A stretch of DNA of 64,000 nucleotides from Escherichia coli O127:H6 str. E2348/69 (lineage in GTDB: Bacteria; Pseudomonadota; Gammaproteobacteria; Enterobacterales; Enterobacteriaceae). Location: NCBI RefSeq assembly GCF_000026545.1, contig NC_011601.1. The stretch is one strand, 5' to 3'. Numbering within the stretch: position 1 is the first letter of the stretch; each line of letters starts with the position of its first letter. Shown here in pieces: positions 1 through 9,338 of the stretch. The position numbers were made by a program, and so were the translations under genes. The notes under the pieces are model-generated. The model was not told the DNA's origin. It saw only the letters and a list, made by a program, of their open reading frames with translations, and did not search any database.

Positions 1-619
1 GACACCTATTCACAACAAGTTTATTGCTGCACTTGTTGTAGAGAGTATTTGTAAAAACATTTTATGTCGCTAAATAACATGACGATTTCATTATGCATGT
101 TATTTATAAACAGCGACTAAACAGAATATTATTGCGAACAAGGGAAGTGTCAGGAAAGGTCAAGAGGTACTAATAGTTTATATGGCTATAAACATTAGCT
201 ATGGTTAATGTTTGCCTGGTGAAACTAACACCAAATTGCTGTAACCCTCTTTGAATCATAAACTGAAGGATGATGCAGCACAGTTCCTCGCGGACTATCC
301 TGGCTACTACATGACCAAACGCGGATATCATCCTCAAGCAGTCAACTCTGGCAATCTTTTTACTCAGCTATGAGGACCTGATCGTCGACTTTGCCATCTG
401 CATGATGAATCTCCTCAGCAGCAGATGCAGTATTTACCGAAATGAATCCCATGAATAATGCAGTAATTAGTAGTGCTTTCATATCTGATGCCTGTTTTAA
501 ACGATATATTTGGAAGTTGACGAATATCGGAAGGAGCTTCCTCCTTCTTGATCTGTAAATATACAGTTCTAAGCTGTCATAAGACTGACTGTCATATGAC
601 AACGTTGTCAGATTTTTGA

Positions 620-910
<291 letters not shown>

Positions 911-1258
911 TGAATCTAGTTCATAAGATAAATCCGTAACACTCACTTGTTTTAACTTAATATTTTTAATAAAAAGATTAAGTTACTTCCAAATAGCTTC
1001 ATGAACTAGCTAAGAATGCGCTTCATCCAAGGCCTCCTGAAGGCGTTCGGGGATACAATTTAGGGAAGCCTCGAAATGTTGCTGCTCAGCAGCTTTTTCC
1101 ATCCAGTCCCGAAACTAGTTAGGGGTTACTCCATACATTGTTAAATGTCAAAATATTGATAAATGTTTTATAGATAACAGTAAGTTAGCCATATTTTTTC
1201 ATTGACCTTTCATTTGTGACGAAGCAAACTGACCTGAATAGTCGCATAGGGATGTCAT

Positions 1259-2359
1259 ATGATTCCTGAAATTGAACTTAGAGATATTCAGCCAAAGGGA
1301 AGCAGTGATGTCCCGTCGTCTTCGCACATTCAGACTGGATTACCGATTCCAAAAACAGTGCGGGTTCAGTTCTTTAGCCCTGACGAATGGGAGTCGTTTA
1401 CAGAGGAATGGGCAAGTTATCTCAAAAATGAATATGTTGCAGCCAGACGCTTTGGGGGTTCTGGTGATCTTGGGATAGATATTGCTGGTTTCTGTTCTGA
1501 CAAGGGATTCGAGGCGGTATGGGATAATTATCAATGCAAGCGCTATGGACATCCTCTTCGGCCTGGTGATATCTGGGTTGAAATTGGCAAGATTATTTAT
1601 TACTCATATCTTGGCAAATATACCCCTCCACGAAAGCATTTTTTTGTTTGCTCTCAGGGAATAGGAACCAGTCTTGAACAGTTGTTGAACAAGCCTACTG
1701 AGTTGAAAGAAAAATCGATTGAAAACTGGGATAATTACTGTCTCAAGGGTATCACTTCTACTGCTGAAATTCCGTTGACTGGTGCATTAAGAGCTTACCT
1801 CGACGCATTTGATTTCACTATTTTCTCATCAAAATCGATAGTTGAGCTTATCGAAATTCATGCCAGAACGGGTTTTCACTCGGTTCGCTTTGGCGGCGGG
1901 CTGCCGTATCGGCCTAATCCATCTTCTCCACCAACCATACCGACGGAAAATGAAAGCCGATACATTCGCCAGTTGCTTGATGCCTATGGAGACCATTTAG
2001 GCACAAATTTACCAGACGCTGCTTCGTTGGCGTCACACAATCAATTTCGTAGTGACTATCTTCGCCAGCGCGAACGTTTTTATCACGCAGAATCGCTAAA
2101 GAATTTTGCGCGAGATACTGTTCCTGCGGGGACATTTGATGCCTTACAGGATGAAATCTACCATGGCGTAATTGATGTCTGCGAAGATTATCACTTGAGT
2201 GGATTTGCGAGAATGAAAGAAACCATGAAGCACGCTACCACTATCGCTGTCACATCAAATCCGTTGGTCACTTCAATTAAAACACAAGATCGCCAAGGTA
2301 TATGCCATCAGTTGGCTAATGACGATCGCCTGATTTGGGTGCCAGATAATGAATCATAA
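1259..2359 (+). CDS. Mrr-like PD-(D/E)xK nuclease-domain protein; candidate effector (LmuA-like) of a Lamassu/ABC-3C-type defence operon
   Basis: 366-aa ORF; N-terminal motif RRFGGSGDLGIDIAG...WDNYQCKRY matches the Mrr-type restriction endonuclease catalytic signature (D..D...QxK); AGGGA 6 nt upstream of ATG; stop overlaps start of next ORF. Confidence 0.6.
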   Translation: MIPEIELRDIQPKGSSDVPSSSHIQTGLPIPKTVRVQFFSPDEWESFTEEWASYLKNEYVAARRFGGSGDLGIDIAGFCSDKGFEAVWDNYQCKRYGHPLRPGDIWVEIGKIIYYSYLGKYTPPRKHFFVCSQGIGTSLEQLLNKPTELKEKSIENWDNYCLKGITSTAEIPLTGALRAYLDAFDFTIFSSKSIVELIEIHARTGFHSVRFGGGLPYRPNPSSPPTIPTENESRYIRQLLDAYGDHLGTNLPDAASLASHNQFRSDYLRQRERFYHAESLKNFARDTVPAGTFDALQDEIYHGVIDVCEDYHLSGFARMKETMKHATTIAVTSNPLVTSIKTQDRQGICHQLANDDRLIWVPDNES

Positions 2360-2834
2360 AAAACATCCAGAGCCCTTTAATAGTCCTTTCGAAACCGGGA
2401 TACGTTCGCTTGCGATTCTGGTTGCAGCCTTCCCTGAGTCTTATGATTTGCAACGGCTAGTTGAAATGGATTATCTCGTTGTGCATTCCGGTGATGCTGA
2501 TGGTCCTGACAGTTTGCATGCCCCATTACCGATGCGTGCGGGCGAACTACTGGTCAGGCATGGTTTGATTGAAAAGGGATTGATGCTCATGATGAGCAGG
2601 GGGCTCGTCCAACGTGTTTCAGCCAGTGATGGGTTCAACTATCTTGCTGGGGAGCTCGCTGCACCTTTTATCTCTTCTCTTACGACTGAATATTCATGTC
2701 GACTAAAAGTTTGTGCTGAATGGGTAACTGGTGAATTTAAAGACCTGCCTACGCAGGAAATACGGAACATTACGCATCGCTTGTTTCAGCAGTGGTCGAG
2801 TCAGTTCCAGAGTATTCAGTCATCTGGAGGATGA
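2349..2834 (+). CDS. small protein, candidate middle component (LmuC-like) of the three-gene operon
   Basis: 161-aa ORF; ATG at 2349 overlaps the upstream stop (2357-2359) and its TGA (2832-2834) overlaps ATGATGATG of the next gene, implying translational coupling; no recognisable catalytic motif. Confidence 0.5.
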   Translation: MNHKKHPEPFNSPFETGIRSLAILVAAFPESYDLQRLVEMDYLVVHSGDADGPDSLHAPLPMRAGELLVRHGLIEKGLMLMMSRGLVQRVSASDGFNYLAGELAAPFISSLTTEYSCRLKVCAEWVTGEFKDLPTQEIRNITHRLFQQWSSQFQSIQSSGG

Positions 2835-4663
2835 TGATGAGCGATAATTATTTGCAGCTTAGAAAAATTTTGTTCCATGGCCAAACCAAAGAATCCGTTT
2901 TATCTTTTTCATCCGGTATTAATGTGATTTGTGGGGCTTCCGATACCGGCAAATCATTCCTGGCAGAAACTCTGGATTTTATGCTGGGTGGAACGGAGCT
3001 CAGGGAAATTACAGAATTAGCTGCTTATGCAGAAATAACTCTCGATTTTGTCACCAGTGATGGTCGAAGTTGGCGTCTTCAACGTGCAGTGACTGGCGGG
3101 AATTTCAAGTTAACTGATTTGGATGAGCCAGACTCGGAACCTATCGTGCTAAAACAGAAGTACGTTCGGGGTAAAACGGATAATATCTCCAGTTTTTTAC
3201 TTGAACAGATTGGCTTGCCGAATAAGGAGATTTTGAAAAGTAGTACCAAAGCGACGACTCAGGGACTGAGCTTCCGCAATCTGGCGAGACTTGCTCTGGT
3301 TCAGGAAGATGAAATTCAGCATAAAGGCTCTCCCTTTTGGAGTGGGCAGTTCACAACCAAAACCGCTGAACTGGCAACGGTCAAACTGCTGCTGACAGGG
3401 GGTGATGATTCTGCGGTCGTTGCAGTGAGTGGCGATGGTGTAAGCAATACGTCTCAGATTATGTTGATTGATGAGTTAATTGCGGAGTTATCCATTGAAA
3501 TTAAGGATATGGGAGAAGAGCGTGATGATCTGGCTTCCCAACTGACCCGCCTTGAACAATCTATTGAGAGTCAACGTGAATCGCTCACTGCCGCACAGCA
3601 GCAACTAGAGCAGTTATTACAACAAAGGGGACTGGCCTTTGATGAGCGAAACAAAATCCAGGGACGACTGGATGAGATATCCGAACTACTTGCCAGATTT
3701 ACACTTCTGAATGAGCATTATGTTATAGATATCAACCGTCTGAAATCCATTCAGGAGTGTGGCTTGCTCTTCATGCATATTGACGTGATTCCTTGCCCTC
3801 ATTGTGGAGCTAGTCCAGCTCACCAACACCTGGAACAAATATGTGATGGAGATGTAGATTCAATCATTACTTCAGCAACTGCCGAGATGCAAAAGACCGA
3901 ACGACTTTTGGCAGAGCTGAATTGTACAGTCAGAGATCTTGTCAGCGAAAAGCAACGCCTTGAGAAGCAATACATTGTCCATGAAGAGGATTATTTGCGT
4001 CTTGATAAAGCCATTCGGGAAACTATTGCTCCTGAAGTTGACAGTTTCAGGCACTCGTATGCTGAACTGATCGACGAACGGGCCAGTGTCCAGCAATCTA
4101 TTGATTTGTTCTCAAGATTGGACCGGCTGGAAAGCAGGAAAGTGGCATTACAAAGCGATACTCCGGTAAAAAAAGAAAAAAGTGCGGTGCAAAACGGCAT
4201 TCCAGAGTCTGTTGCCCATAGTCTGTCGTTAAAAATCTCCTCTATATTAAAAGACTGGCATTTCCCCGGAGCATGCCAGGTATTTTTTGACAAAGATACT
4301 TCGGATTTTGTAATTGATGGAAAACCTCGCGGTAGCCGGGGAAAGGGGCTACGAGCAATTACCCATGCGGCAGTCAGTGTCGGACTACTTGAGTTTTGCC
4401 AAGAAAATGGGCTATCGCATCCGGGATTCCTAGTTCTGGATTCCCCTCTACTGGCTTACTACAAACCAGAAGGTGAAGATGATGTAGCTTTGCAAGGTAC
4501 TGACTTGAAAGAGAAATTCTATGATTATCTTGTGAAGCACCATAATGAAGATAGTCAGATCCTTATTATAGAAAATCCGCATCCACCGCAAAGCATGAAT
4601 AAACAGATTACTATGACGGTATTCACTGGTAATCCTAGGGTTGGCCGTTTCGGATTGCTTTGA
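2831..4663 (+). CDS. SMC/Rad50-like ABC ATPase with central coiled-coil and CxxC hook (LmuB-like)
   Basis: N-terminal Walker A GASDTGKS (nt 2933-2956); long heptad-rich, Q/E/L-rich central region containing CPHC (nt 3794-3805); C-terminal hhhhD motif FLVLDSP (nt 4427-4447); GGAGG at 2826-2830; start chosen among ATG 2831/2834/2837 (track ORF begins 2792). Confidence 0.65.
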   Translation: MMMSDNYLQLRKILFHGQTKESVLSFSSGINVICGASDTGKSFLAETLDFMLGGTELREITELAAYAEITLDFVTSDGRSWRLQRAVTGGNFKLTDLDEPDSEPIVLKQKYVRGKTDNISSFLLEQIGLPNKEILKSSTKATTQGLSFRNLARLALVQEDEIQHKGSPFWSGQFTTKTAELATVKLLLTGGDDSAVVAVSGDGVSNTSQIMLIDELIAELSIEIKDMGEERDDLASQLTRLEQSIESQRESLTAAQQQLEQLLQQRGLAFDERNKIQGRLDEISELLARFTLLNEHYVIDINRLKSIQECGLLFMHIDVIPCPHCGASPAHQHLEQICDGDVDSIITSATAEMQKTERLLAELNCTVRDLVSEKQRLEKQYIVHEEDYLRLDKAIRETIAPEVDSFRHSYAELIDERASVQQSIDLFSRLDRLESRKVALQSDTPVKKEKSAVQNGIPESVAHSLSLKISSILKDWHFPGACQVFFDKDTSDFVIDGKPRGSRGKGLRAITHAAVSVGLLEFCQENGLSHPGFLVLDSPLLAYYKPEGEDDVALQGTDLKEKFYDYLVKHHNEDSQILIIENPHPPQSMNKQITMTVFTGNPRVGRFGLL

Positions 4664-4830
4664 TTAGGAGGATGGTTTGAATGGAAACACAATGCACAAT
4701 GTCGTGCAGTTGTTGCTGCGCACAATGGTCGTTTATGGACGAAGTTATCACTTCAGTCAAAAGAATTTTAAGTAGCTAAGCTGCGCGTTGGATAGGTAAT
4801 GAAATGACATAAACAGATATTATAGCGACC

Positions 4831-5292
4831 GTGGCATGTGCCATATCAGGGGTCGCCGCGCTATTTTCAGGAATAGCATTATGTCAATCAGCAAAAGCAA
4901 ACCGCAGAGCAAATCAGGTATCAGAGCGAGGCTTGCGTATTGATTTAGTTGATTGTCGTATGAATATACGGAATGCGTTCACGTTAATTATGGATGAGTT
5001 CGAGGCGCAGAGATACGGGCCAGCAGATAACTATATTATTCAGGCAAAAATCACCTTCCGTGATGCGGGTATATTTTTTGGTAATGACGTAAGTGAATTT
5101 CTTACCGAGTTAATGAGACAAATTAGCACCTACAGCGAGATATTTAAAACTAGGACAATGGGCCGTCTTATTTTTGACCCTCAAGGAGATGTTAGAGAGG
5201 AAGAGCAACGATTAGAACAAATAAGGCTATGGGTGATAGCACAGCGTGGGCCCGGCAATGACATGTTCGACAGAATCATGAGTGTTTCATGA
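4831..5292 (+). CDS. hypothetical protein, N-terminal hydrophobic segment; start uncertain (GTG at 4831 or internal ATG)
   Basis: 153-aa ORF with AT-rich rare codons (ata, aga, tta), followed immediately by a stem-loop plus T-tract; no motif recognised. Confidence 0.35.
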   Translation: MACAISGVAALFSGIALCQSAKANRRANQVSERGLRIDLVDCRMNIRNAFTLIMDEFEAQRYGPADNYIIQAKITFRDAGIFFGNDVSEFLTELMRQISTYSEIFKTRTMGRLIFDPQGDVREEEQRLEQIRLWVIAQRGPGNDMFDRIMSVS

Positions 5293-5302
5293 TACACGCT
5301 AG

Positions 5303-5332
5303 ACCCGGCCTCAGTGCCGGGTGTTTAATTTT
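5303..5332 (+). terminator. Rho-independent terminator-like hairpin downstream of the 153-aa ORF
   Basis: acccggc-ctcagt-gccgggt stem-loop followed by gtttaatttt. Confidence 0.45.
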
Positions 5333-5569
5333 CCTAACTACAACCGTCGCCTCACCGTCCCCCAAACGAATCGGAACAGCTGTTCCATGAACAGTCAGAT
5401 GGTGTGGCCCAAATTAGTTGCCCACTACACTTCAAGACTATAAATTCTGGAGTAACAGTCGGTTAGCTTCCTTCATGGGCCAGTCATGGCGAGTTGTTAA
5501 GTATGGCTGTTTGCGATAAGCTTTAGATACTCTTTAGCGTTGGACGGTTACGTCTAGTCGGGTGATTAG

Positions 5570-6607
<1,038 letters not shown>

Positions 6608-8576: not shown

Positions 8577-9335
8577 ATGTCTGACTGGAACCCCTCTTTA
8601 TATCTGCACTTTGCCGCTGAACGATCGCGTCCGGCAGTGGAGCTGCTTGCCAGGGTGCCGCTGGAGAATATCGAATACATTGCCGATCTTGGCTGTGGCC
8701 CAGGTAACAGCACCGCCCTTCTACACCAACGTTGGCCTGCTGCCAGGATAACGGGCATCGACTCATCTCCGGCGATGATTGCTGAAGCGCGCAGTGCTTT
8801 GCCAGACTGCCTGTTTGTGGAAGCAGATATCCGCAACTGGCAACCGGAACAGGCACTCGATCTGATTTTTGCTAATGCCTCGCTGCAATGGCTGCCCGAC
8901 CACTACGAATTGTTTCCTCATTTGGTTTCGTTACTCAGTCCGCTGGGCGTGCTGGCAGTACAGATGCCAGATAACTGGCTGGAGCCGACCCATGTGCTCA
9001 TGCGCGAAGTTGCCTGGGAACAAAACTACCCGGATCGCGGGCGTGAGCCGCTGGCTGGCGTTCATGCTTACTACGATATTCTGAGTGAAGCCGGATGTGA
9101 GGTCGATATCTGGCGAACCACTTACTATCACCAGATGCCGTCGCACCAGGCGATTATCGATTGGGTGACCGCCACTGGATTACGTCCGTGGTTACAGGAT
9201 CTGACCGAGAGCGAACAGCAGCATTTTCTTACGCGCTACCATCAGATGCTGGAAGAGCAATATCCCCTCCAGGAGAACGGACAGATATTGCTGGCATTTC
9301 CGCGTCTGTTTATTGTTGCCCGCCGTAGGGAGTAA
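8577..9335 (+). CDS. tam: trans-aconitate 2-methyltransferase
   Basis: 252-aa protein [12 protein letters not shown]...[10 protein letters not shown] (SAM-binding motif) matching Tam. Confidence 0.95.
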
Positions 9336-9338
9336 TTA

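Follow-up and report, generated by a model that had tools for sequence, protein, structure and literature searches.

A 64,000-nt stretch of the chromosome of enteropathogenic Escherichia coli O127:H6 str. E2348/69 (the window, whose positions number all features below) carries at 1259-4663 a three-gene operon that probably encodes a Lamassu defense system. The operon corresponds to 1656472-1659876 of NZ_LT827011.1, and window positions 1100-4800 are 100% identical in three E2348/69 assemblies. All three genes lie on the plus strand. The first open reading frame (ORF1), lmuA (1259-2359, 366 aa), encodes the putative effector, with an N-terminal Mrr-like nuclease domain and a C-terminal CTD6 domain; lmuC (ORF2, 2349-2834, 161 aa) encodes a small middle component of the ABC-3C MC2 type; and lmuB (ORF3, 2837-4663, 608 aa from the RefSeq start) encodes a short ATPase of the SMC/Rad50 type that has one CxxC zinc hook. 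RefSeq names the products, in the same order, ABC-three component system protein, ABC-three component system middle component 2 and AAA family ATPase.

The genes are packed tightly. The lmuC ATG sits 11 nt inside lmuA, and three in-frame ATG codons at 2831, 2834 and 2837 come after a GGAGG at 2826-2830 (the entire string occupies 2826-2839); these ATGs span the lmuC TGA at 2832-2834. lmuA, lmuC and lmuB are translationally coupled via these overlapping stop and start codons, just as described in the original prediction, a sequence-only reading that had recognized three co-directional ORFs here. That reading counted ORF3 from ATG 2831, giving about 610 aa and a Walker A lysine at position 41; from ATG 2837, the RefSeq start 6 nt past the GGAGG, the protein has 608 residues and the lysine is K39. 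The AT-rich character of the operon, previously judged by eye, is borne out by computation: its GC content is 44.6% (38-41% at third codon positions, GC3), as compared to 48.7% for the whole window and 54.8% (GC3 58.5%) for the core gene tam.

Each of the three proteins matches its Lamassu profile hidden Markov model (HMM) in PADLOC essentially from end to end: LmuA aligns to PDLC03852 end to end at 2e-133, LmuC to PDLC03871 over its full length at 1.9e-54, and LmuB to PDLC03863 over profile positions 2-606 of 610 at 3.1e-176. Because the full-length E-values range from 1e-54 to 1e-176, the match to Lamassu is not due to chance. Pfam places CTD6 of ABC-3C systems (PF20282) at LmuA residues 232-360, MC2 (PF20288) across LmuC at 2e-47, and AAA_23, as anticipated, in LmuB; NCBIfam holds no model for LmuA or LmuC. 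The locus thus has what defines a type II Lamassu, i.e., an LmuB ATPase, an LmuC middle component and an LmuA with a C-terminal domain (CTD) in a conserved co-directional operon, and equally what defines an ABC-3C system, i.e., an ABC ATPase, an MC-family protein and an effector with a CTD of a recognized family. In the DefenseFinder nomenclature it is a Lamassu-Mrr; in that of ABC-3C it is an Mrr-CTD6 effector with MC2 and a small Rad50-like ATPase. The three genes are identified and complete, with all catalytic and architectural motifs conserved. We therefore read the locus as a predicted type II ("short") Lamassu system of the Mrr-nuclease subtype, with a probability of about 0.78, and the earlier proposal of a Lamassu/ABC-3C system with an Mrr-type effector is supported.

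The order of effector, small middle component and SMC-like ATPase, on which that proposal leaned, is conserved in Dickeya and Advenella loci, which have the same CTD6-MC2-ATPase succession and the same gene overlaps; their neighbors are other defense-type genes (TIR, SEFIR, HerA-like DUF87 with HNH). Whether this exact subtype had been characterized could not be told from sequence at the outset. It has: the Lamassu-Mrr of E. coli O150:H5 SE15 (system SG108) protects E. coli, depends for defense on lmuC and on the ATPase and effector sites, and acts by abortive infection, with liquid cultures collapsing when the multiplicity of infection is high (Millman et al., bioRxiv 10.1101/2022.05.11.491447). 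Family membership supports the placement of the E2348/69 locus in this experimentally validated subtype as a predicted new member.

In LmuA, residues G66, G67, G69, D70, G72, D74, W88, Q92, C93 and K94 are invariant in an alignment that includes the SE15 and Bacillus proteins. They form the D...QxK pattern that is typical of Mrr-like enzymes. The AlphaFold model of residues ~35-205 (predicted local distance difference test, pLDDT, 80-97) shows the alpha-beta-beta-beta-alpha-beta core of PD-(D/E)xK nucleases, and Foldseek returns Avs3, Cap4 and FokI at marginal E-values. We are confident that the modeled N-terminal domain has a PD-(D/E)xK fold, nearest to Mrr-like nucleases; the more specific Mrr assignment is supported by the motif, the predicted fold and membership in a family whose proteins have been labeled Mrr nuclease (Millman et al., bioRxiv 10.1101/2022.05.11.491447). 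In the same study, the LmuC-type component is labeled as a winged helix-turn-helix protein. LmuA homologues form 1917 clusters at 90% identity (E<=1e-5) with a nearly fixed length of 365 aa, and LmuB homologues form at least 700 clusters by the same thresholds, with a nearly fixed length of 608 aa; both are spread over Gamma-, Beta- and Alphaproteobacteria.

LmuB retains the full set of ATPase motifs, as was claimed for its Walker A, CxxC and C-terminal Walker-B-like strand. Across 25 aligned LmuB proteins, the Walker A motif C32-GASDTGKS-F41 (with K39 and S40), a single C320-P-x-C323-G, a signature-like G495-K-x-R-x-S500-x-GKG, the D535-S536 pair of a Walker-B-like FLVLD535-S536-P, and H582 are all invariant. 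Short Lamassu ATPases have a Walker B consensus of hhhhD[Q/S/T/E] (PMC12663957), which the D-S pair therefore fits. The predicted structure comprises a head (1-190), a helix (204-314), an apex loop with C320-x-x-C323, a second helix (340-440) and a second head segment (457-608), supporting an ABC head and an antiparallel coiled coil with CxxC at its apex, the architecture expected from the start. Foldseek against the PDB ranks Lamassu LmuB chains best (9hqx_B and 9hqu_A, both from Salmonella at E 1.7e-14, and 9uxh_F; E 1.7e-14 to 9e-14 overall), with a further match to 9ux7_A from an LmuAB-DNA complex; Rad50, SMC and JetC rank after the LmuB chains. Single-sequence phmmer searches of the PDB sequences with LmuA, LmuC and LmuB gave no matches; a profile of LmuB homologues matches 9hqu_A at 9e-9, and a profile of LmuA homologues found nothing meaningful in the PDB.

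A mechanism can be sketched by homology to the Cap4-CTD7/MC3 Lamassu systems whose structures were solved from Vibrio cholerae and Salmonella, from which sequestration, release and tetramer formation are known (PMC12663957; bioRxiv 2025.03.14.643221; bioRxiv 2025.06.23.660979), and to the validated SE15 system. Two LmuB subunits together with LmuC would hold one LmuA monomer inactive, with its C-terminal oligomerization domain buried. The LmuB/LmuC module would sense DNA ends or aberrant replication structures originating from phages or plasmids, and ATP binding or hydrolysis by LmuB would free LmuA. The freed effector may then oligomerize through CTD6, pairing its Mrr nuclease domains into an active site; LmuA of CTD7 systems oligomerizes as a tetramer (PMC12663957; bioRxiv 2025.03.14.643221, 2025.06.23.660979). 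The assembled nuclease would cut DNA with no sequence preference, and the infected cell would be killed or arrested in abortive infection. The operon itself presumably came in with a mobile module, no less than 4.2 kb long, whose copies are mostly on conjugative plasmids.

Among 5426 complete E. coli genomes, 65 contain the operon at >=99% identity; of its 69 occurrences there, 58 are on plasmids. It also occurs in 51 PLSDB plasmids (45 from Escherichia, 6 from Klebsiella), 43 of them conjugative, and no copy was found in the phage genomes searched. On plasmid p779-2, it lies among the ColV-type virulence genes iss, iroB, ompT and mig-14. The block in common with p779-2 defines the shared Lamassu module, window 892-5063 (8793-12964 of locus L003), with 7 mismatches in 4172 bp (99.8% identity); on its right side the block is cut by IS1. 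Only two of the mismatches change amino acids: LmuA L239 is Met and LmuB G189 is Val in the plasmid alleles. Homology to p779-2 and to the chromosome of E. coli MB64 begins at 892 in both cases, and the conserved upstream region (892-1258, plus strand), which moves with the operon, is presumed to hold its promoter and leader. No promoter was detected in 892-1258 by a simple sigma-70 scan, so its presence ahead of lmuA is presumed only.

In E2348/69, the module sits in a chromosomal island. Homology to K-12 ends at 244 and resumes at 6573, so the operon is indeed absent from this position in K-12; the 6.3-kb insertion, 245-6572, is flanked by the fimbrial operon ydeQRST on one side and by hipA of hipBA on the other, and replaces the yneL region. 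Site-specific integrase fragments (6185-6607, minus strand) and a fragment of a helix-turn-helix gene are present in or at the island, which for this reason looks like an old integrative element, now decaying. In MB64, this chromosomal site holds the same Lamassu, and an intact retron Ec78 (reverse transcriptase, PtuA, PtuB) comes after it. The E2348/69 island has a retron Ec78-type remnant at 5529-6061 (plus strand): Rfam recognizes the msr RNA at 5529-5593 (79.9 bits, as compared to a gathering score of 52), but relative to MB64 some 55 bp are gone at ~5610, just after msr at the expected msd site; the reverse transcriptase gene (5660-6061) matches only the first ~123 of 308 profile positions and is cut after ~130 codons, and neither ptuA nor ptuB is present. 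Although the island is in decay in E2348/69, the three Lamassu frames are intact.

Between lmuB and the retron remnant lies an ORF of 162 codons with a hydrophobic N-terminus (4804-5292, plus strand), which follows lmuB in the E. coli chromosomal copies examined. It is intact in MB64 (WP_238092898.1) and disrupted in E2348/69, where a C to T change at base 4810 turns codon 3 from CAA into TAA, hence the 100-aa fragment from 4990 that is all RefSeq annotates; the p779-2 copy is cut by the IS1 at 5063. Neither PADLOC nor NCBIfam nor PHROGs has a family match for this ORF, the Dickeya downstream gene is dissimilar and none is evident in Advenella; we therefore reject it as a fourth Lamassu component. 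A strong terminator-like hairpin (5303-5322) lies 3' of it. At the other end of the island, an 80-aa ORF (360-602, minus strand) matches phrog_29776 over its full length (7.5e-53), where RefSeq records only a partial BhsA-like pseudogene.

The same genes could be read in other ways. The preponderance of plasmid copies, mostly on conjugative carriers, and the lack of phage-borne ones would fit a main role in inter-plasmid conflict or plasmid maintenance, excluding the competitors of conjugative carriers much as DdmABC does in V. cholerae, and Lamassu relatives do have anti-plasmid activity (bioRxiv 10.1101/2022.05.11.491447, 2025.03.14.643221). The validated SE15 relative, however, scored as anti-phage, and a plasmid-triggered system on a plasmid must spare its own carrier; we hold this role to be improbable as the main one, while recognizing that plasmid and phage roles are compatible and that the molecular mechanism would be identical. 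Hardly credible is a type IV-like restriction system in which the Mrr domain cuts modified foreign DNA and LmuB is a DNA-tracking motor, with no cell death. LmuA has no DNA-recognition domain in front of its nuclease; instead, the nuclease is N-terminal and fused to the Lamassu CTD6, which, with the coupling of lmuA to lmuC and lmuB, also leads us to reject a stand-alone type IV Mrr, an enzyme in which a DNA-binding domain precedes a C-terminal Mrr_cat nuclease. Furthermore, the collapse of SE15 cultures is a hallmark of abortive infection, and short LmuB proteins, whose Walker B is deviant, show very poor ATPase activity (PMC12663957; bioRxiv 2025.03.14.643221). Among other candidate identities, Wadjet (JetABCD) is rejected given a marginal JetC match (0.0077) and no JetA, JetB or JetD partner genes, and Gabija given a marginal GajA match (0.0018) and no partner genes; both matches reflect just the P-loop or coiled coil.

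Several observations do weigh against the reading as a Lamassu-Mrr system. In LmuB, residue 189 is Gly (GGT, 3401-3403) in E2348/69 and I, V or L in all 24 other aligned homologues, lies inside the invariant motif K183-LLL-TG-x-DD, and is Val in the plasmid and MB64 alleles. Because this Gly189 interrupts an invariant motif and the flanking genes are decaying, the E2348/69 allele, and hence this copy of the operon, may be weakened or impaired. A genuine Lamassu-Mrr operon surviving here as an attenuated or inactive relic of a decaying defense island would also account for the nonsense codon in the downstream ORF, the gutted retron next door and the fragmented integrase. We consider such a relic unlikely: the three frames are full-length with every catalytic motif kept, the proteins differ from a widespread plasmid allele at just two residues, and one Val-to-Gly change need not destroy function. 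As for LmuA, an Mrr-type signature had been read in ORF1, and its motif, G69-D70-x-G72-x-D74 with Q92-C93-K94, is indeed invariant, but the query has no significant match to Pfam Mrr_cat. Mrr_cat is matched by 14 of 26 aligned LmuA homologues, only at E<=0.1 (best 1.4e-3); with the query missed and the homologues marginal, the sequence evidence for "Mrr" is weak. The CTD6 part of the LmuA model is poorly predicted (pLDDT <50 for residues 279-366), and since the solved structures are CTD7/MC3 systems with Cap4 effectors, oligomeric activation is extrapolated from them to Mrr-CTD6. That the Mrr-CTD6/MC2 branch is activated unlike the Cap4-CTD7 tetramer, by another oligomer or with a preference for modified DNA, its almost exclusive presence on conjugative plasmids of the ColV type reflecting plasmid competition over phage defense, seems to us quite unlikely. 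The validated relative is distant (identity to SE15 is 35% for LmuA, 42% over the full length of LmuC and 26% over the first 400 aa of LmuB), and a closer LmuA relative, at 40% identity, belongs to a Bacillus cereus Lamassu-Mrr that gave no defense in the same assay (bioRxiv 10.1101/2022.05.11.491447). Finally, literature searches pairing Lamassu with E2348 or with ColV returned nothing on this sequence cluster or on Lamassu in E2348/69.

On balance, the predicted Lamassu-Mrr assignment gives the E2348/69 genes a defense-system name. Beyond annotation the import is small: standard defense-system HMMs already detect the locus and RefSeq already annotates its genes. Conjugative virulence plasmids in E. 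coli and Klebsiella carry the same module at 99.9% identity, the Mrr-CTD6/MC2 branch is without a solved structure, which makes a conserved E. coli representative a reasonable structural subject, and LmuB G189 versus V189 is a natural allele pair for a simple functional test.

Among known systems, the Lamassu-Mrr of SE15 has the same three-gene architecture, with proteins of 379, 168 and 620 aa as compared to 366, 161 and 608 aa here. Its proteins match the same PADLOC models, the best-scoring PDLC03852 and PDLC03871 being common to both, and it shares the Mrr motif GxGDxGxD...YQCK, CTD6 and an LmuB CxxC at the same place. It differs in genomic location and in having been tested experimentally. 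The two are not the same sequence: SE15 is absent among the matches listed at >=99% identity, and the proteins are 26-42% identical.

V. cholerae DdmABC and Salmonella enterica LmuACB (9hqu, 9hqx, 9uxh) match the E2348/69 operon in gene order and in the short fold of LmuB (Foldseek E 1e-14 along the entire protein), although E2348/69 LmuB is only ~15% identical to the Vibrio and Salmonella proteins. The solved systems pair a Cap4-CTD7 effector with an MC3 LmuC, whereas the E2348/69 operon pairs an Mrr-like-CTD6 effector with MC2; the sub-family with small LmuB, LmuA CTD6-12 and LmuC MC2-8 takes in both (bioRxiv 2025.03.14.643221). V. cholerae LmuB has no zinc hook (PMC12663957), unlike E2348/69 LmuB with its invariant CxxC. 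With ABC-3C, direct Pfam membership via CTD6, MC2 and the ABC ATPase leaves no differences; the names ABC-3C and type II Lamassu denote the same systems (bioRxiv 2025.06.23.660979). LmuB shares the head, coiled coil and zinc-hook architecture of Rad50, but an identity as Rad50-Mre11/SbcCD is rejected: LmuB has a far shorter coiled coil and a Walker B with D-S rather than D-E, NCBIfam Rad50/SMC models score 14-23 bits where their cut-offs are 567-1087 bits, and there is no partner gene for an Mre11/SbcD phosphoesterase. The Lamassu nuclease is releasable, while that of SbcCD is fixed on the complex (bioRxiv 2025.03.14.643221), and Lamassu has been proposed to derive from SbcCD (PMC12663957).

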